From a virus (taxonomy: Duplodnaviria; Heunggongvirae; Uroviricota; Caudoviricetes), in IMG/VR virus record IMGVR_UViG_2541047898_000010: 41,067 nucleotides of DNA. One strand, written 5' to 3'. The notes beneath the pieces are model-generated. The model saw nothing but the letters and a program-made list of their open reading frames with translations, made no database searches and was not told the origin of the DNA. Positions 1 to 8,990 of the stretch are shown here, one piece after another. Position numbers and translations under genes: made by a program. Each line of letters begins with the position of its first letter. Within the stretch, counting starts at the first letter, position 1.

Positions 1-1158
1 ATGCTCACCGTTAAGCAGATTGAAGCAGCAAAGCCGAAAGAAAAACCATACCGCCTTCTCGATGGTAATGGCCTGTACCTTTATGTTCCTGTATCCGGGA
101 AAAAGGTATGGCAGCTTCGCTACAAGATTGACGGTAAGGAGAAAATCATGACCGTCGGAAAATATCCGCTTATGACTTTGCAGGAGGCCAGGGATAAAGC
201 ATGGACTGCGAGGAAAGACATCTCGGTTGGCATCGATCCGGTAAAAGCGAAAAAAGCTTCGTCTAATAACAATTCCTTTGGTGCGATTTACAAGGAATGG
301 TACGAGCACAAGAAGCAAGTCTGGTCTGTAGGGTATGCGACTGAACTTGCCAAAATGTTTGATGACGACATTTTACCTATCATCGGCGGCCTTGAAATTC
401 AGGATATTGAGCCGATGCAACTGCTGGAAGTAATCCGCAGATTTGAAGATCGCGGTGCAATGGAGCGAGCCAACAAAGCCCGCAGAAGATGCGGCGAGGT
501 TTTCCGTTACGCTATTGTCACCGGAAGGGCTAAATATAACCCAGCACCTGACCTTGCTGACGCCATGAAGGGATACCGCAAGAAGAACTTCCCGTTTCTT
601 CCTGCAGACCAGATCCCGGCATTCAACAAAGCACTGGCAACATTTTCAGGAAGTATCGTATCGCTCATTGCGACCAAAGTTTTACGCTACACAGCACTCA
701 GAACAAAAGAGCTTCGTTCCATGCAATGGAAGAACGTCGATTTTGAAAACAGGATTATCACTATCGACGCCAGTGTGATGAAGGGCCGCAAGATACATGT
801 TGTTCCTATGTCAGACCAGGTGGTTGAACTTCTCACTACGTTAAGCTCCATCACCAAACCAGTATCAGAGTTTGTTTTTGCCGGGCGTAACGATAAGAAG
901 AAGCCAATCTGCGAGAACGCGGTATTGCTTGTGATCAAACAAATCGGCTATGAGGGCCTGGAAAGCGGTCACGGATTCAGGCATGAATTCAGCACGATTA
1001 TGAACGAGCACGAATGGCCTGCCGACGCCATTGAAGTGCAACTGGCACATGCCAATGGCGGATCTGTGCGCGGCATTTACAACCATGCTCAGTATCTCGA
1101 TAAGCGCAGAGAAATGATGCAGTGGTGGGCGGACTGGATTGATGAAAAGGTAGAGTGA
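1..1158 (+). CDS. int: Tyrosine integrase (P4 / IntS-like family)
   Basis: 385 aa; C-terminal catalytic pattern R...HxxR...Y (LRTKELRS, GHGFRHEF, VRGIYNHAQY); followed directly by gtrABC as in enterobacterial serotype-converting prophages. Confidence 0.9.
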   Translation: MLTVKQIEAAKPKEKPYRLLDGNGLYLYVPVSGKKVWQLRYKIDGKEKIMTVGKYPLMTLQEARDKAWTARKDISVGIDPVKAKKASSNNNSFGAIYKEWYEHKKQVWSVGYATELAKMFDDDILPIIGGLEIQDIEPMQLLEVIRRFEDRGAMERANKARRRCGEVFRYAIVTGRAKYNPAPDLADAMKGYRKKNFPFLPADQIPAFNKALATFSGSIVSLIATKVLRYTALRTKELRSMQWKNVDFENRIITIDASVMKGRKIHVVPMSDQVVELLTTLSSITKPVSEFVFAGRNDKKKPICENAVLLVIKQIGYEGLESGHGFRHEFSTIMNEHEWPADAIEVQLAHANGGSVRGIYNHAQYLDKRREMMQWWADWIDEKVE

Positions 1159-1309
1159 GCGACCTTAAACTATCGAATAGCACAAAGTCTTGCAATCCAG
1201 TGCAAAGCTTTGTGCGCCTCAGTTTTGTCTCATCAACCACAGCAAGTCATCGATCGATTGAGACTTGGATGATAGACTTCATGCCTTTGATTATTAGCTG
1301 ATAGAAGAA

Positions 1310-1672
1310 ATGTTAAAGCTATTTGCAAAGTACACCTCGATTGGTGTGCTGAACACACTTATACACTGGGTGGTTTTTGGTGTATGTATCTATGTCGCGC
1401 ATACAAACCAAGCTCTTGCAAACTTCGCAGGTTTCGTTGTGGCTGTGAGTTTTAGCTTCTTCGCGAATGCAAAATTCACATTCAAAGCATCGACTACAAC
1501 GATGCGCTACATGTTATATGTCGGGTTCATGGGAACACTGAGTGCAACTGTTGGATGGGCTGCTGATAGATGTTCACTTCCTCCAATTGTCACTCTTGTC
1601 ACCTTCTCCGCCATCAGCCTGGTGTGCGGTTTCGTCTATTCAAAGTTCATTGTCTTTAGGGATGCGAAATGA
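1310..1672 (+). CDS. gtrA: GtrA, bactoprenol-linked glucose translocase (flippase)
   Basis: 120 aa small polytopic membrane protein of GtrA type; ATGA overlap with the next gene at 1669-1672. Confidence 0.9.
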
Positions 1673-2580
1673 AGATATCTCTTGTAGTTCCTGTCTTCAA
1701 TGAAGAAGAAGCGATACCAATTTTTTATAAAACGGTACGTGAATTCGAAGAGTTGAAGCCATATGAAGTGGAAATTGTTTTCATAAATGACGGCAGTAAA
1801 GACGCTACGGAGTCAATTATTAATGCTCTGGCTGTTTCAGATCCTCTAGTGGTTCCGCTGTCATTTACACGAAACTTTGGTAAAGAACCCGCATTGTTTG
1901 CAGGGTTAGACCATGCAACCGGGGATGCTGTAATTCCAATTGATGTTGACCTGCAAGACCCGATTGAGGTTATTCCTCATCTTATTGAAAAGTGGCAGGC
2001 AGGTGCTGATATGGTGCTTGCTAAACGATCTGACCGATCAACGGATGGCAGACTGAAGAGGAAAACCGCCGAGTGGTTCTATAAGCTGCATAACAAAATC
2101 AGCAATCCGCAGATCGAGGAAAATGTTGGTGATTTCCGTCTGATGTCTCGTGAAGTCGTAGAGAACATTAAGCTCATGCCAGAACGCAACCTTTTCATGA
2201 AGGGTGTTTTGAGTTGGGTTGGTGGTCGCACTGATATCGTTGATTATGCCCGCGCAGAACGTGTTGCTGGCAGTACCAAGTTCAACGGATGGAAGTTGTG
2301 GAATCTTGCTCTTGAGGGAATTACGAGCTTCTCGACTTTTCCGCTACGTATGTGGACTTACATCGGCCTTCTCGTCGCTGGCTTAGCATTTACATATGGC
2401 GCATGGATGATTCTGGACACTCTGGCGTTTGGAAACCCGGTTAGAGGTTATCCATCCCTGCTAGTATCTATACTTTTCCTTGGTGGTATCCAACTCATTG
2501 GTATTGGTGTTCTTGGTGAGTACATTGGACGAATTTATATTGAAACAAAACAACGCCCAAAATACATTATCAAACGGTAA
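1669..2580 (+). CDS. gtrB: GtrB, bactoprenol glucosyltransferase (GT2 family)
   Basis: 303 aa; N-terminal GT2 domain ([23 protein letters not shown]) and C-terminal membrane helices. Confidence 0.9.
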
Positions 2581-2586
2581 GAATTA

Positions 2587-4053
2587 ATGAAAAGAAAACA
2601 ATATTTTTCTACAATACTGACATGCACAATGCTATTTGTTCTGCCTATAATAATCGCCAATGTTTACTATATAGATGATAATTATAGGTCTATAACTGGC
2701 GATGACGCGTGGCACATAGATGGCCGCCCTTTATCAGACTTATTAATGTACATCGTTAATGGGAATACTCATTTAACAGATACTTCCCCATTACCAACTT
2801 TCATTTCAATTATACTTTTATCAGTAAGTAGTTATTCATTCTCTAAAAGGTACATTGGTTTTAATCATGGTGTAATCCCATTTACTTTGATACCACTTTG
2901 TATTTTTGCCAGCCCATTTTTCATTGAGAATGTAGTTTATAAATTTGATGTGCTTCCAATGTGTGCATCTATTAGCTTATCTTATTTGTTTATAAATGTA
3001 AGTATAGCAAATAGATTTCTCAAGTTGCTGTGTCTATCTGTAATAGTCACATGCATATTATCTGCTTACCAAGCATCTATAAACTTTTTGCTATCACTAG
3101 TTCTATGTGAGTTCTTATCAAGATACAACAACAATGTAAAGAACTTATTTTCTTTTATTATTGAAACAATGGCGTCTCTTTGTATTGGTGCTTTTATTTA
3201 TTTAAAGATTATACTTCCTATTTTTCTTATAACACCTGAGTCCTCAGATCACCCAATGCTAGAGGCGCAAAATATTATTGGTGTTGCTTACAGCAATTCT
3301 CTGTATTACTTAAACTTAATATGGATATCAATACCTGAATCATGGCGATATATCTACTTGTTATTATTTGCTATGTCTATTATTTGCGCAATATGTATTG
3401 CAATAATCAAAAAGGAAAATGGAATTACTGGATTGATTCTATGCCTTATTGCTGGTCTATCGCCGATCATTTCCGTCTTGTGTTCATTTATAAGCCTATC
3501 AACCCTATCTTCGCCATTGCCATTCCCAAGAGTCATGATAGGATTCTCTGGTACATGCCTATTTATTGCAATGGTTATATTTGAGTTCACAAAATCTTTT
3601 AGGGCTAAGGTATTCTATATATTAGCAATACCAGTCTGGTTTTCTTTTGGTATGTACTATTCATATGGAAACGCTTTACGAGCAAGCAGCGATATTACTG
3701 ATGCTATATTTAACAATATAAAAGATGATGTATTTTCATTAACAAAGAAAGAAGACTCTGTAATATTATTCCACGGAGCAACACCAAAAAGCAAAGTGTT
3801 GTTAAACTCAATTAAGAATTACCCTATAATAGGTGGTTTGGTTCCAGATTACCTTACAAACTGGACTTTACCTTATACATATATGTCAAGAATAGGAATT
3901 TCCTATGTAAAAGATTATAGCGTCAATGCTGATGATATAATAAATAACAATAATTTTTGTTCTAATTCTGATAGAATAGAACGATATAATTATAATGTTC
4001 TATTTTTTGATGATATTTCAATAATAGATTTCAGTAAAGAACTTTGCAGGTAA
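2587..4053 (+). CDS. Serotype-specific O-antigen glucosyltransferase (Gtr type-specific, GtrC-like)
   Basis: 488 aa, strongly hydrophobic multi-pass protein, markedly AT-rich compared with neighbours, third gene of a gtrAB cassette. Confidence 0.7.
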   Translation: MKRKQYFSTILTCTMLFVLPIIIANVYYIDDNYRSITGDDAWHIDGRPLSDLLMYIVNGNTHLTDTSPLPTFISIILLSVSSYSFSKRYIGFNHGVIPFTLIPLCIFASPFFIENVVYKFDVLPMCASISLSYLFINVSIANRFLKLLCLSVIVTCILSAYQASINFLLSLVLCEFLSRYNNNVKNLFSFIIETMASLCIGAFIYLKIILPIFLITPESSDHPMLEAQNIIGVAYSNSLYYLNLIWISIPESWRYIYLLLFAMSIICAICIAIIKKENGITGLILCLIAGLSPIISVLCSFISLSTLSSPLPFPRVMIGFSGTCLFIAMVIFEFTKSFRAKVFYILAIPVWFSFGMYYSYGNALRASSDITDAIFNNIKDDVFSLTKKEDSVILFHGATPKSKVLLNSIKNYPIIGGLVPDYLTNWTLPYTYMSRIGISYVKDYSVNADDIINNNNFCSNSDRIERYNYNVLFFDDISIIDFSKELCR

Positions 4054-4055
4054 AA

Positions 4056-4085
4056 AAAGCCCTCTTTAGTGAGGGCTGTTTTTTC
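4056..4085. terminator. Bidirectional intrinsic terminator between convergent gtr cassette and tailspike gene
   Basis: A-run, stem agccctc (4058-4064) / gagggct (4071-4077), then T-run gtttttt. Confidence 0.6.
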
Positions 4086-5934
4086 ACTCAAATAAAGTTT
4101 CCATAATGTATGTGATGCTACCAGTAAATTTAGATGTGGTGCTAATGCTAGAGTCCTGGAGTGGGCTGGTTGCAGGAATTTGGTGATTGTAGAAGTCTAT
4201 AGATGTTGACCCTCTTTCTATAGCAATGGAACACATCCCCACACCAGGTTGTAGTCCTGTAGCAATGGATACAATTCCACTGGCGCGGTTTGACGAAGGG
4301 TAAGGTAAATCCCTGATTTTCATTGCTCCAGTCTGCCCGCTGAATCCATTTAATTCCAAAGAAAATTCGACTGTAACAAGGCCTCCGTCTTTCCTGAATT
4401 TTATATCCGCTGACGCACCTGAAATTCCAACCGTGCTCGTACCAAATGTTATTCTTGCCCCATCAAGAGAGCCTTTAGAGATGAATGGCTCAGGAACTAT
4501 GGACTCAGATGCACCTGTTGCACGATATAAATATTTGTTACCTGGGGTATTAACAATAACAGTAGATCCTGACGCCCATGGACCAGAGCCAATAACAGGC
4601 AACTCTCCACTCTCAAACAGACTGTTAGTAAACACCAAGTTGTTGCCAGGACCGTGTATAAACACGTCGTATTTATATGTTCCACCAGATCTAAAATTGT
4701 TAATTGTTATCCTGTTTTGTGTGCCGTTAATGGATATAAGTGGGCTTTGATCATTGGCGATAGGCAGACATCGGAAAGAATCTATGTTGATTGTGTTCTC
4801 ATTAAGGAATGCTAATGCAGAACCATAATCCAAAGTTTTAGCTCTTGCTTGTTCACAACCACAACCTAATAAATTGATATTAGAACACTTATCAAAAAAA
4901 TAAGCTGTACTTGTGGTTCCATCAGATGCGCATCCTATGAGATTAGAATAACTGACGTTTTCTAAACGAAAAGCCCCGGGAGTCGTATCACCATACTCGT
5001 CTGGTGAGGCGCACCAAACATTGGTATAGGTAGTAGATGTTCCACCATTCTGCCTTATCTGGCCCCATGTCGCGATGTTAGTTAGCGTTGTCAGCCAAAC
5101 ATCATTCATCAAAATAGCGGTCTTAGCATTCTTTACCCCTATCCGCTCAAGAGCATATGCTTGCCCTGCATTTATAGCCAGTCCACATTCTCCTCCAAGA
5201 TCATCAGCCTCTAGCGTAATATCTCTTAATGTCACCCTCTGTGGAAAAGTTTCATAAGATGGAGCCTCAGAATCAACATAAGCTACCGTATCAACAGTAA
5301 ACTCTGGTGCTGATGAGGATTGCCCAGGCTTTAATGTTACAGTTGCATTACCGGTTTTTTTAAATCTCTTTGTGGTTTGAATTTCTGTCCCAGATAGAAT
5401 GAACTGATAATCATGATCTCCATGGTAGGTTTTAAATGAGCTGAATTTAAATCCATCTATTGGGGTGTTCACGTTACCAATGATGTTAGGAAGTTTTTCT
5501 CCGAGAGTGTCACCCACATTGCTTTGGGTGCCGCTTTCTGGGTTTGTGTATCCAACCAGGTTTGCGCCAACTCCTGATCCTAACTCTTGTCTCAATTGGT
5601 CTGGATCATACTTCAGCACATTAGGGAAATAGAATTGCTGAGCACCATATGCATCATAAACAGCCATAGAATGGCCTTGCACGGTAACGAATTTGGCAAT
5701 CTGTCCGTTATATACCGGGTAACCAGCAGCGTTAATGATGATTGGTTGCGAAACAGGAACGTGAGAGCCGTCTTCGTTCTCCACATAAACCTGAATCTGG
5801 TTTTCAGTATTTACCGGATCAGTGTCAATTTTTCCGATATAAATCTTTCCATTAGCTACGGCTTTAAAAGAACGAGCCATAGTGAAGAGTTGCGAAGGCA
5901 TGCTTACTACAACATTGGCTGTAATGTCTGTCAT
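4084..5934 (-). CDS. Tailspike protein (P22/Sf6-type head-binding N-terminus, distinct receptor-binding domain)
   Basis: 616 aa; first ~110 aa ([11 protein letters not shown]...KIDTDPVN...VLKYDPDQ) match P22 tailspike N-terminal domain from memory; ATG at 5932-5934. Confidence 0.9.
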
Positions 5935-6066
5935 TTAATTTGCTCCAGATACAATGAATCGCCGCAGCGTGGCCACGGTTGGTATTTGTTGCATACCGAA
6001 ACGGTACGATTGTTGATTTGTACAGTAGGTTTTACGATGCCATTCCACCCATTTGGTGAGGCATTG
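5935..6066. promoter_or_regulatory. Divergent control region between tailspike and mnt with a perfect 10-bp palindrome CGTGGCCACG (5968-5977)
   Basis: Palindrome read directly; resembles in style the Mnt operator of P22; putative -35 TTGTTG / -10 TACGAT for mnt on plus strand. Confidence 0.4.
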
Positions 6067-6324
6067 ATGATGTACAGCAAATACGATGAGGCGCAGTTCC
6101 ACTTGAGGCTTACGCACGAGTTGCACGCCAAGATTAAACAGCGTGCAAAAATGAATAACAGGTCTATCAATTCCGAAATTGTGGCTACGATGGAAGAATC
6201 ACTCTCCAAACCACCACCTGTAAGCGGGTATCGTGATGAAGAAGAGAGGCTGGCCTCATTAATCTCGGAACGAGTAAAAGAAGTTGCGGCTGATATCCTT
6301 AGAAAAGAAAAAACCCGCGATTAA
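6067..6324 (+). CDS. mnt: Mnt-like ribbon-helix-helix repressor
   Basis: 85 aa from ATG at 6067 (C-terminal part of track ORF 5587..6324); FHLRL...NNRSINSEIV...PPVSGYRDEEERLA resembles P22 Mnt. Confidence 0.75.
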   Translation: MMYSKYDEAQFHLRLTHELHAKIKQRAKMNNRSINSEIVATMEESLSKPPPVSGYRDEEERLASLISERVKEVAADILRKEKTRD

Positions 6325-6338: not shown

Positions 6339-6560
6339 TTAGTTATCAAAAAGTCCGTACGTTTCTTCTTCTTCAGGTGTAAGGGGAAGAATCTCTACTC
6401 TATCTATAGATACCTTTTCAATGTACCCATGAGGTCTACTTAAAATTAAAGCTCTCTCATGCCACAGAACTCCAAGAATGTGATACCTTCCAGCATCACC
6501 TTTTACCCTAGCTCTTCCTTTGATTCTTGGCGGCATAATGCCATATTTTTTCTTTGCCAT
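6339..6560 (-). CDS. Hypothetical small protein, last gene of antirepressor operon
   Basis: 73 aa ORF; start overlaps stop of upstream gene at 6560. Confidence 0.45.
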   Translation of the reverse strand: MAKKKYGIMPPRIKGRARVKGDAGRYHILGVLWHERALILSRPHGYIEKVSIDRVEILPLTPEEEETYGLFDN

Positions 6561-7288
6561 TATGCAACATTACTCCCATGAATCAGGTGTTGTAGTGCTT
6601 TAACGCCTTCCGCATTGTAGCGGAATGCTTCCACCTGTTTGCTGGAATGCGCAGATTTATCCAGGAAGAACTTCCCGTACTGCTCAGTTTTGAGGTTGTT
6701 TGCGTTAGCAATGCGACCAATCTTGTTGGCCGTTACTCCAAGCTGCTCTGCAACCTCCCCTGCTGAGTAGTAATGCTCTTCTATTGCCGGAAGAGGTATT
6801 GCATTAAAACCAACGAGCGGGTTGATTATACTTGCTGCCGCTGTCTGCTTTGCCTCAGGCGCAAGATTTGGCATCAGATCGAACAGATTGGTAACAGCTT
6901 CAACCGTCATTTTCAATGTTCGCGCTTGACGATACTCAACAAGTCCACTCGCTGATTTACCGCTTTTAATGTGCGCTTCTTGCATGCTTTCAAGTTGGTC
7001 TACCAGTGAGCGGCGAACGGCTTTTGACTCGCGAGCGGCAACTCGCAATGCTTGCTTGATTGACATCTCAATGATAACCATCGAAGTTTTGTTCGCTTTT
7101 TGCACTACACTTTTTGTGTAGTGCTCTCCATCCAATTCATCTTCAATTTTCTCGATGAATTTGTTATTACGAACCTCCGGCTCACCGCACTGTCTACGAG
7201 CCTGATTTACCATCTCAAGCAGGCGCTGGCTGTCAATGGTTTTATCCGTGACAACGGATCCGATGTTTGCTACATTCTTAAAAGTCAT
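6560..7288 (-). CDS. Antirepressor-like protein (KilAC/ANT-type C-terminal region)
   Basis: Track ORF 6560..7375 begins with TTG; an internal ATG at 7286-7288 is preceded by AAGGAA; position downstream of arc-like gene. Confidence 0.55.
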   Translation of the reverse strand: MTFKNVANIGSVVTDKTIDSQRLLEMVNQARRQCGEPEVRNNKFIEKIEDELDGEHYTKSVVQKANKTSMVIIEMSIKQALRVAARESKAVRRSLVDQLESMQEAHIKSGKSASGLVEYRQARTLKMTVEAVTNLFDLMPNLAPEAKQTAAASIINPLVGFNAIPLPAIEEHYYSAGEVAEQLGVTANKIGRIANANNLKTEQYGKFFLDKSAHSSKQVEAFRYNAEGVKALQHLIHGSNVA

Positions 7289-7375
7289 TAGGCATTCCTT
7301 ATGTGGTAGTAAGGGTGTGACATAGGCCGCCAGCAGCACACTGGCGGTTTTCTTTTGCGCCGTCCTGTGCACCAA

Positions 7376-8002
7376 TCAATGAATCCATTCCTCGCCGCGC
7401 AGTTTTGCCAGCATTGGCTGAGCGTTCTTTACGACAAAATTGTTGGTATCAAGATTCTTCATTTCACGAAGAAGTGATTTCTTGGTTTCTTCTGACATGT
7501 AGCGAGTCTCATATGCAATATCGTAAATCCTTCCTGAAAGCTCAGAACCAATTTGCTTCATTCCTGGGTAGATGTGTTTGCACATTTGTTGACTCTTCTC
7601 CATCCACAATTGTAAGTAGCAGAGATTAACCAGCTCTTCGTCAGTGAACTGTTTTGCAATCGGTGAGCATTCTGCCTGCCGATCCAAAATATCCAGCACC
7701 CAGCGGCGGAACTCTTTGGCTACCGGAGTGCGAGCAAACATCGCGATTAGGTGGGCACCGCGTAGTGAGAAAACTCGCACTTTTTTGCGATAATTTCCTG
7801 AGGTACTCACTTCGAGTACCTGAGTCATCCCGGCGCTAAACTCATCGCTATACTTGTTATAAATCATTGTTACTGCACGGCTATTTGCATATTTAAGTGC
7901 AGATGCAATATTAGATGATGTAAACCAAACACCATGCATATCACGGGTGGGCACCAACTCAACTCCGTGGAAGTTGTAATCTGATTTTGCTACAATATTC
8001 AT
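7376..8002 (-). CDS. Bro-N domain antirepressor-like protein
   Basis: Track ORF 7376..8107 begins with TTG; ATG at 8000-8002 preceded by AGGAAA; N-terminus FHGVELVPTRDMHGVWFTSSNIASALKY resembles Bro-N / KilA-N fold. Confidence 0.6.
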   Translation of the reverse strand: MNIVAKSDYNFHGVELVPTRDMHGVWFTSSNIASALKYANSRAVTMIYNKYSDEFSAGMTQVLEVSTSGNYRKKVRVFSLRGAHLIAMFARTPVAKEFRRWVLDILDRQAECSPIAKQFTDEELVNLCYLQLWMEKSQQMCKHIYPGMKQIGSELSGRIYDIAYETRYMSEETKKSLLREMKNLDTNNFVVKNAQPMLAKLRGEEWIH

Positions 8003-8075
8003 GTTAGTTTCCTTGCATACGGTTACTGACATAGAGGCCCGGTTTGTGTTCGCGCACTGCCGGGCTTCACTATTT

Positions 8076-8249
8076 TTATTGGATGACAACATCGCCCTTT
8101 GCCTCAAGTTTCATTAATAACTCCATTCGATAAGCTATCTCTGCCTGAATTGACCTATGGCATCTTTTTGCTGATTCGCGGATATGTGAATCAACCTTTT
8201 CTGTAAAACGAACCTGACGCGGCTTGATGGAAGATATCTTTTCAGTCAT
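8076..8249 (-). CDS. arc: Arc-like ribbon-helix-helix regulator (not in the ORF track, 57 codons)
   Basis: Hand translation: MTEKISSIKPRQVRFTEKVDSHIRESAKRCHRSIQAEIAYRMELLMKLEAKGDVVIQ; ATG 8247-8249 preceded by AGGAG; pattern matches P22 Arc. Confidence 0.55.
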   Translation of the reverse strand: MTEKISSIKPRQVRFTEKVDSHIRESAKRCHRSIQAEIAYRMELLMKLEAKGDVVIQ

Positions 8250-8348: not shown

Positions 8349-8990
8349 ATGAATTTTGACGATCAATTCCCATCAAGAGTATCTCTGGCAAGACAGTCGA
8401 GGGGTATGACGCAGGCGCAGTTGTCAAAATTAGCTGGTGTTGTTCAACGTCAAATAGCTGCATACGAGGGTGGTGAGGCTAAACCACGGCTTCGTGTATT
8501 GCAGGCATTAGCCAACGCATTAGGCACTACGGCTGAGTGGTTAGCTCTGGGTGAAGGCCAGGGGCCGGGAACAAAAAACGTCATGCCTGACGTTCTGGTA
8601 AAGCAAATACCAATCCTCAAACTAGATGAAGTTATGCATTACCTAAACACAGGTGAACATTCATCGTCTAGATTTCATCCGGCAATATACAATGTTGGTG
8701 ACTCTGCATTTGCATTGACTATTGAAGGTGAAGCTATGACTACAAGTTCAGGTATTAGCTTTCCCAGAGGATCGGTTGTCACGTTCAGCCCTCTAGTAAA
8801 AGCTAAAAGCAAAGATTATGTAATAGCATCTTTGGATAAAGAGCAAATATTGAGCTTCAAACAGGTTTACATTGGTGAAATAGAGACAAACCTAGTATCC
8901 CTAAACCCAATGTATCCTAATATTCTTGTTAGAAATGAAGATGTTAGTATTTTGGCAACCGCAGTTTACCTTGAAATCCCGTTGCTTTGA
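8349..8990 (+). CDS. LexA/cI-like repressor (HTH_XRE + S24 peptidase-like domain), catalytic Ser apparently replaced by Ala
   Basis: 213 aa; N-terminal HTH (MTQAQLSKLAGVVQRQIAAYE); C-terminal region aligns with the 434 cI in this window (VEGDSMT vs IEGEAMT; FKKL vs FKQV). Confidence 0.8.
   Translation: MNFDDQFPSRVSLARQSRGMTQAQLSKLAGVVQRQIAAYEGGEAKPRLRVLQALANALGTTAEWLALGEGQGPGTKNVMPDVLVKQIPILKLDEVMHYLNTGEHSSSRFHPAIYNVGDSAFALTIEGEAMTTSSGISFPRGSVVTFSPLVKAKSKDYVIASLDKEQILSFKQVYIGEIETNLVSLNPMYPNILVRNEDVSILATAVYLEIPLL

Follow-up and report, generated by a model that had tools for sequence, protein, structure and literature searches.

The principle that a phage carries an enzyme modifying the polysaccharide which its own tailspike recognizes has been known since P22, epsilon34, and Sf6, and it was shown in Escherichia coli for phage HF4s. 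Lysogens of HF4s gain a lateral glycosylation of the O-unit and cease to adsorb HF4s, and the conversion also blocks the unrelated phage DT57C (bioRxiv 10.1101/2021.06.09.447823). In the Salmonella phage BTP1, blockage of BTP1 infection requires gtrC and is achieved by gtrC alone, which also shields the O-antigen of the lysogen from shortening dependent on the BTP1 tailspike gene (PMC4413052). The underlying three-step mechanism via undecaprenyl-phosphate-glucose (Und-P-glucose), established for serotype-converting phages of Shigella flexneri, is summarized in the genome paper of epsilon34, which describes gtrA and gtrB as generic and gtrC as serotype-specific (PMC2629481). The locus analyzed here leaves this understanding unchanged. 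It is a gtrA-gtrB-gtrC operon converging on a tailspike gene in a 41,067-nucleotide sequence of the Caudoviricetes (IMG/VR record IMGVR_UViG_2541047898_000010), the whole of which is referred to as the window. The window is a P22-like (Lederbergvirus-like) E. coli prophage, trimmed from the start of the integrase gene int to the end of the excisionase gene xis. Its final bases match the end of the excisionase genes of Sf6 and HF4s, it carries a complete P22-like gene set from int through the virion genes to xis, and its integrase shares 98.7% of its amino acids with the Sf6 enzyme. The integrated layout can be seen in the chromosome of E. coli LR-21-1, where yfdC, tRNA-Arg, intS, gtrA, gtrB, the third gene, and the spike gene follow each other.

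The region is probably a lysogenic-conversion (serotype-conversion) module of this P22-like prophage, situated beside the phage's own gene for a polysaccharide-specific tailspike. Judged from the sequences, the operon most likely adds glucose to the O-antigen and the tailspike most likely binds that O-antigen. The three gtr genes are intact (1310-4053, + strand) and form a single, tightly packed operon, in which gtrA and gtrB overlap by 4 nt (ATGA) and gtrB and gtrC are separated by 6 nt. Since the four open reading frames (ORFs) of the cassette are long, give strong domain matches, and have full-length homologues, they are not chance features. GtrA was assigned to PF04138 (GtrA_DPMS_TM) in Pfam at 1.9e-13 and to the GtrA-like phrog_2224 in PHROGs at 2.2e-70, its identity being 91% to SfV, 79% to P22, and 97.5% to HF4s; it is the presumed flippase for Und-P-glucose. 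GtrB matched PF00535 (Glycos_transf_2, 2.6e-31) and the GtrB-like phrog_841 (3.3e-166), shares 92% of its residues with SfV and 89% with P22, and has two C-terminal hydrophobic segments (231-249 and 264-282), consistent with a bactoprenol glucosyltransferase of glycosyltransferase family 2 (GT2) with predicted C-terminal membrane anchors. Because of these identities to the SfV and P22 proteins, the donor pathway is almost certainly that of Und-P-glucose. The conservation of gtrA and gtrB (GC = 0.44) had already been pointed out in an earlier note on this DNA and is borne out by the comparison with SfV.

The third gene is an intact transferase of the GtrII family with the glycosyltransferase C (GT-C) fold. 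Its product covers PF14264 (Glucos_trans_II, a Pfam family named after GtrII) over the full length (profile positions 3-317 of 317, 6.6e-24) and belongs to the GtrC-like phrog_4829. With 0.312, the GC content of gtrC lies far from that of the window (0.463 overall) and is usual for type-specific gtr genes, as shown by P22 gtrC (0.318) and SfV gtrV (0.333). Thus, the earlier description of an AT-rich, type-specific Gtr transferase proved right, and the two refuting cases named with it, a pseudogene or a non-transferase, do not apply. Identity to P22 GtrC amounts to 28%, and no BLAST match to GtrV of SfV was obtained. In a database of 5.8 billion proteins, one cluster of approximately 100% identity was found (E. 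coli, 21 member sequences), followed by relatives at 45 and 44%, with 28 proteins in total at E <= 1e-5. Among 25 homologues (21-46% identity), D30, D31, G38, W42, G46, R47, P48, D65, P68, D121, Y161, Q162, R315, and G397 are invariant. The AlphaFold model built on this alignment is confident (predicted local distance difference test, pLDDT, 91; predicted template modeling score, pTM, 0.90) and features a membrane core of helices and, at approximately 390-488, a domain of mixed alpha/beta structure. In this model, the fold of the multi-helix core matches polyprenyl-phosphate-sugar-dependent transferases, and the soluble C-terminal domain would be periplasmic. D30 and D31 directly follow the first transmembrane helix (TM1, residues 2-24), in a loop that probably faces the periplasm; in GT-C enzymes, the catalytic acidic motif is usually located at this point. 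The PDB sequence search with GtrC returned no match. Megablast against 5,426 complete E. coli genomes gave no match to gtrC, scans of IMG/VR yielded no relatives of GtrC or of the spike, and no NCBIfam model matched GtrA, GtrC, or the spike. Besides, phrog_20490 (172 amino acids, annotated as "unknown function") matches GtrC residues 317-488 (window 3535-4053) at 2e-101; this family seems to represent a piece of the gtrC type found here and is open to re-annotation.

The tailspike combines a common virion adaptor with a rare module. Its N-terminus matches PF09008 (Head_binding) at 1.2e-66, and residues 1-118 share 89% identity with Sf6 gp14 (7sg7, 4e-64) and 74% with the P22 tailspike (2.6e-50), in line with the earlier note, which had described a retained P22-like head-binding domain joined to a different C-terminal domain. 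The 501-residue module (116-616) belongs to phrog_21710, a PHROGs family with the annotation "function unknown" that is separate from the module families of P22 gp9, Sf6 gp14, and HK620. Close relatives were found only in spikes of E. coli prophages, at 96-100, 67, and 39% identity. Relatives at 63-64% are located on spikes without the head-binding domain (P0035, P0036), and those at approximately 38-43% on other adaptors, i.e., PF18668 (Tail_spike_N) and a T7 tail-fibre N-terminus, including the 1,038-amino acid tail fibre of the N4-like phages E20 and vB_Eco_F22. The literature on the latter consists of passing mentions, in which no receptor data were found. An exhaustive HMMER scan of 1.84 billion representatives of 50%-identity clusters gave 85 matches to the module family at E <= 1e-3 and 25 at E <= 1e-30. 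The above-mentioned megablast search found no match to the spike C-terminus, its sole match being one of 85% to spike codons ~112-308 in LR-21-1.

The AlphaFold2 model of the spike is confident for residues ~235-610 (pLDDT about 70-93) and features a parallel beta-helix, with repeated short strands at 235-480, and a C-terminal beta-sandwich. Residues 1-232 were modeled poorly, probably owing to the different N-terminal adaptors combined in the alignment; the global template modeling scores (TM-scores) are consequently low, and the structural statements are confined to the part beyond residue 232. Foldseek matches in the PDB comprised the tailspikes of Det7, AS12, Sf6, and CBA120 as well as Klebsiella capsule depolymerases (E 3.5e-8 to 1e-3, ~10% identity). 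The modeled fold thus points to a polysaccharide-directed spike with a swapped module, of which residues 201-616 are presumed to be the glycan-binding and glycan-cleaving part. D215, E361, and D423 are invariant in the module family and D338 is nearly so, and these acidic residues are candidates for catalysis.

A functional connection of gtrC and spike is supported by their joint inheritance and replacement. In the following, type A designates the spike and gtrC of the window, and type B the pair of the loci L004 and L024, the latter located in LR-21-1 (NZ_AP027487.1). In every other retrieved occurrence (L001/L002, L003, L017/L018, L019, L020), the type-A spike is accompanied by the same gtrC. 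These copies belong to five other distinct E. coli prophage sequences with at least four virion backbones and are 96.6-98.7% (spike) and 99.6-99.8% (gtrC) identical to the window. The type-A pair is carried by GCA_036681565.1, GCA_022547625.1, GCA_045012255.1, SRR26560783, ERR1622609, and ERR4220797, and the type-B pair by GCF_036494765.1 (LR-21-1) and ERR1789875. The ejection proteins encoded nearby are far more diverse, comprising at least four types with 26-39% (gp16) and 48-72% (gp20) identity to those of the window, and the prophages are found at different sites, i.e., beside torT, beside dacD, or at argW with IntS. Compared to L001, a DNA block of 97.4% identity is limited to window positions 1075-6201, and the flanking virion genes are 74-91% identical or unalignable. 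Another GtrII-family gtrC, whose product is 30% identical to the window GtrC, is paired with the spike P0043, the module of which shares 39% identity with that of the window.

Two comparisons reveal the replacement itself. A stretch of 8.6 kb with virion genes, mnt, and roughly the first 200 spike codons is 100% identical in L003 and L004. Starting near spike codon 200 and extending across the third gtr gene, identity falls to 34-74%, the third gene of L004 encoding an unrelated glucosyltransferase of 413 amino acids (phrog_19534). Likewise, LR-21-1 and the window share 95% DNA identity over int-gtrA-gtrB, ending 12 nt into gtrC, and the first 200 spike residues are ~100% identical, while the spike body and third gene of LR-21-1 are of type B. 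This type-B pair is in turn 99% identical to that of L004, which is integrated at another chromosomal site. Residues 116-200 are 100% identical between the spikes of type A and type B and hold motifs conserved throughout the family, including TVDTVAYV; residues 201-616 are 50-80% identical. As near-isogenic prophages differ only in spike residues ~200-616 and the third gtr gene, spike module and gtrC are exchanged as a single unit. From the sequence alignments, this unit would consist of spike residues ~201-616, the terminator, and gtrC, roughly 2.7 kb (window ~2587-5334), flanked by gtrB and, at the opposite end, by the conserved spike sub-domain 116-200 as putative crossover zone. The earlier claim that the phage modifies the very O-antigen recognized by its spike is thereby supported, namely by co-inheritance, co-replacement, and analogy to the layouts of HF4s and BTP1.

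Both genes apparently also share their transcriptional end. The gap of 30 bp between them is occupied by one GC-rich hairpin with A7 on one side and T6 on the other. Its folding energies on the two strands amount to -16.9 and -18.0 kcal/mol (z -3.5 and -4.9), and none of 200 shuffled sequences was as stable. Because the hairpin folds well on both strands, with no equal among the shuffles, it is predicted to be a bidirectional terminator common to gtrC and the spike gene. The coordinates of all features are compiled in the table.

Table. Features of the conversion cassette and its surroundings in the window
Feature	Position	Strand	Basis or remark
Integrase gene, IntS-type	1-1158	+	ORF listing
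3' end of the IntS-type integrase gene	1075..1158	+	Left edge of the block common to sister prophages
int-gtrA intergenic region	1159..1309	+	int terminator-like hairpin and presumed gtr promoter/leader; GATC at 1252
gtrA, 120 aa, small membrane protein	1310..1672	+	PF04138, phrog_2224
gtrB, 303 aa, GT2	1669..2580	+	PF00535, phrog_841
gtrC, 488 aa, type-specific transferase, 31% GC, GT-C fold	2587..4053	+	PF14264, phrog_4829
Predicted bidirectional intrinsic terminator of gtrC and the tailspike gene	4058..4077	.	7-bp GC-rich stem between A7 and T6
Tailspike gene, 616 aa, intact	4084..5934	-	ORF listing; convergent with the gtr operon
Tailspike residues 1-113, P22-type head-binding (virion adaptor) domain	5596..5934	-	PF09008
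Tailspike residues 116-200, conserved N-terminal sub-domain of the receptor-binding module	5335..5589	-	Identical in types A and B
Tailspike residues 201-616 and stop, variable parallel beta-helix and C-terminal beta-sandwich	4084..5334	-	AlphaFold2, Foldseek

Some of the related loci deserve a separate remark. The spike P0037 (L021 7001-8581) is cut by the contig end; its beta-helix is type-B-like and its last ~45 residues are type-A-like, a mosaic which suggests that recombination also occurs inside the spike module. In L024 (LR-21-1), the DNA-transfer gene at 9299-10613 is truncated by an IS1A insertion, and the prophage is consequently defective, with gtr operon and spike gene still intact. 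The gene table of L001 (GCA_036681565.1) has no entry at the tailspike position (11467-13470). The Logan contig L002, whose blastn alignment to the window is identical to that of L001, has a gene of 616 amino acids called there, and the missing call is probably a gap in the annotation table and not a pseudogene.

From homology to the Gtr systems of Shigella and Salmonella, the following course of events up to O-unit glucosylation can be proposed. In the lysogen, GtrB would transfer glucose from uridine diphosphate glucose (UDP-glucose) onto undecaprenyl phosphate at the cytoplasmic face of the inner membrane, GtrA would turn the resulting Und-P-glucose to the periplasmic face, and GtrC, a GT-C enzyme with the DD motif in the first loop past TM1, would link the glucose to a specific sugar residue within the O-unit. 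The subsequent step is drawn from the comparative evidence and from the experiments with HF4s, BTP1, and P22: the glucosylated O-antigen would no longer serve as substrate or ligand of the beta-helix tailspike, sister phages would be unable to adsorb, which results in superinfection exclusion, and the O-antigen of the lysogen would also be spared from spikes released on induction. As the modifier would have to match the glycan read by the spike, the variable part of the spike and gtrC would lie next to each other and be inherited and replaced as one unit, with gtrA, gtrB, and the head-binding domain as generic parts that may act as recombination flanks.

Several points weigh against this interpretation. 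The joint exchange is what selection for matched specificity predicts, but physical linkage alone would also yield it, and it is thus to be regarded as support and not as proof. Moreover, the spike beside the 44% GtrC relative, from Enterobacter, is an unrelated one of the PF18668 type. The 45% relative is part of a chromosomal gtrB-gtrC pair (L005 7079-9458, L006 2166-4545) that is surrounded by housekeeping genes, with neither a called gtrA nor phage genes nearby. Because of these relatives, the GtrC type is not universally tied to this spike family, and judged from the sequences the phylogenies of GtrC and spike are not globally congruent. No consensus sigma-70 promoter was found 5' of gtrA (1159-1309), so that expression of the gtr operon in the lysogen is only assumed. 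Regarding the receptor, no sequence match past residue 118 was obtained to any solved chain in the PDB, nor to the spikes of P22, Sf6, and HF4s, and a profile of the module family matched PDB chains only through the N-terminal adaptors of its members. In tblastn searches of 50,697 deposited phage records, the best matches reached 43% for the spike module and 28% for GtrC, none of them characterized. The database comparison of both proteins that the earlier note had proposed was hence carried out with no characterized match for either, and its caution that the specificity is not deducible from sequence remains valid. Finally, the modeled fold alone cannot separate an O-antigen from a capsule receptor.

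The first of three rival explanations regards gtrABC as a moron that alters the O-antigen for the benefit of the host, e.g., by immune evasion or defense against other phages, and that is functionally unrelated to the spike. Adjacency would then merely reflect the location of both next to the attachment/integrase end in P22-like genomes, and their common replacement would be a consequence of linkage. The slot between int and spike indeed takes varied cargo, i.e., oac in Sf6, neuO in CUS-3, and genes for an acetylase, an esterase, and hypothetical proteins in other coliphages, and the GtrC relatives beside an unrelated spike or no phage, as well as the blockage of the unrelated DT57C by HF4s conversion, would fit this picture. 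Nevertheless, the characterized cargo of this slot modifies the receptor of the adjacent spike, as demonstrated experimentally for HF4s and BTP1. The replaced tracts, furthermore, end near functional borders, namely the gtrB/gtrC junction and the end of the conserved spike sub-domain, and the pairs of type A and type B are kept intact over different backbones and integration sites. An independent moron is accordingly considered unlikely.

Only a slim chance is given to the second rival, in which the receptor of the spike is a capsule or another exopolysaccharide and the Gtr operon modifies a different molecule. Foldseek also matched depolymerases of the Klebsiella capsules K1, K2, and K21 and the phi92 colanidase, with scores near those of the O-antigen spikes, CUS-3 is a P22-like coliphage with a capsule-specific spike, and related modules are carried by virulent phages with uncharacterized receptors, N4-like and T7-like ones among them. 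If the spike read another polymer, however, its tight pairing with gtrC would be hard to explain, and as group 4 capsules of E. coli consist of O-units, this rival partly merges into the preferred explanation of a modifier acting on the polysaccharide read by the spike. Moreover, the Gtr systems described act on O-units (PMC2629481). Hardly credible is a decaying remnant comparable to yfdGHI of the K-12 prophage CPS-53 that no longer converts: the order argW-intS-gtrA-gtrB, with the gene names yfdG/yfdH in LR-21-1, and the lack of a detected promoter would agree with it, but none of the three gtr genes is shortened, their start and stop codons overlap or lie close together, GtrC is conserved at 99.6-99.8% over independent prophages and keeps the invariant family residues, and the window otherwise holds the complete P22-like gene set.

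The region upstream of gtrA is conserved between the window, L001, and L004. Homology starts at window position 1075 for L001 and at 1098 for L004 and L010, so that homology to the 3' end of int is kept in these three loci, in which the int gene is not adjacent to gtrA. The last 60-84 bp of the IntS gene retained 5' of gtrA correspond to 1075-1158 in the window, 8487-8570 in L001, and ~12533-12593 in L004, and the prophages concerned sit beside torT or dacD, without an integrase gene there. The retained piece could be the scar of a past cassette transfer from a phage with IntS-type integrase; it may also be that a conserved 3' end of int overlaps with the attachment site of these phages. The terminator-like hairpin of int is located at 1200-1217, and TTGCAATCCAGTGC at 1190 is a near-match to the CII-type motif TTGC-N6-TTGC. 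One GATC site (1252) is present upstream of gtrA, compared to four in P22, which are arranged as two pairs with 13-nt spacing. Such a spacing fits a Dam/OxyR phase-variation switch, and the four-GATC switch is a trait of P22 and many Salmonella gtr operons and not of the whole gtr family. The P22-type Dam/OxyR signature is absent upstream of gtrA, and due to the single GATC a P22-style phase-variation switch seems unlikely for the window phage. Likewise, the gtr operon of BTP1 was reported to be non-phase-variable (PMC4413052).

Beyond the cassette, the immI region is larger than in P22, given a run of three ORFs (6339-8107, -) and an Arc/Mnt-like gene. The three consecutive ORFs encode 73, 271, and 243 amino acids, the last being a Bro-N/P22_AR_C antirepressor and the first two having no Pfam match, and the Arc/Mnt-like gene is located on the other side of them (6067-6324, +). 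On the immI side of the genome, an ORF of 213 amino acids (8349-8990, +) with HTH_3 and Peptidase_S24 domains, i.e., a CI/LexA-like repressor, is flanked by an Arc-like gene (8076-8249, -) and the gp16-like gene; cleavable repressors of P22-like phages are not usually encoded there. The ORF at the position of the ejection protein gp16 (9568-11409, -) has no Pfam match and is only 26-39% identical to gp16 of the sister prophages with the same gtrC/spike cassette.

New in detail are an uncharacterized gtrC type, an uncharacterized member of a spike module family, and a clean comparative case of a joint swap. Prophage-borne Gtr operons generate O-antigen variants and thus affect serotyping, vaccine targets, and phage susceptibility, and the adjacent tailspikes represent ready-made O-antigen-specific binders and enzymes. 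L003 compared to L004, and the window compared to LR-21-1, provide a natural example of spike module and modifier being swapped in one step. It is conceivable, albeit rather doubtful at present, that the phrog_21710 module and gtrC constitute a separate, transferable specificity cassette whose crossover points are fixed at the gtrB/gtrC junction and in residues 116-200. If carriers of type A and type B each turned out to belong to a single O-serogroup, this would point to two E. coli O-antigens with glucosylated, maybe undescribed, variants, and each O-antigen would gain a matched pair of enzyme and blocking modification.

Compared to known systems, the cassette is ordinary, because its layout is the textbook arrangement of P22, a point missing from the earlier note. 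P22 features the same order and orientation of int, gtrA, gtrB, gtrC, terminator, and the convergent gene 9, and epsilon34 has the same canonical architecture. P22 GtrC belongs to the same Pfam and PHROG families as that of the window at the low identity given above, but the receptor-binding modules of the two spikes are unrelated in sequence. While attP lies between int and gtrA in P22, the window has an integrase of the Sf6/IntS type with attP on the other side of int. The S. flexneri phages SfV, SfII, SfX, and SfI carry the operon gtrA, gtrB, gtr[type] as in the window, with tail-fibre genes adjoining it in SfV where the window has a tailspike. Sf6 and CUS-3 also possess IntS-type integrases, with attP between xis and int, and a gene modifying a surface polysaccharide between int and the convergent spike gene, as in the window. 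According to their annotations, oac is combined with an O-antigen endorhamnosidase in Sf6 and neuO with a K1 endosialidase in CUS-3, and both modify the receptor of the adjacent spike. The cargo of these phages, however, is an O-acetyltransferase instead of a Gtr operon, and their spike modules are unrelated to that of the window. A terminator is annotated at the same position in P22 and Sf6. The C-terminal modules of the Gamaleyavirus phages E20 and vB_Eco_F22 share 43% identity over the whole 500-amino acid module and the same conserved motifs, but are attached to other N-terminal adaptors in virulent N4-like phages with no gtr partner. Among P22-like coliphages, HF4s (host E. coli 4s, O22-like O-antigen) has the same int-gtrA-gtrB-gtrC-spike layout, with 92% DNA identity to the window in int, gtrA, and gtrB. 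Its GtrC (410 amino acids) and the module of its 791-amino acid spike show no similarity to those of the window, so that its specificity differs and HF4s was rejected as a proxy for the specificity of the window phage. The type-A pair is a rare new specificity pair of a long-known architecture.

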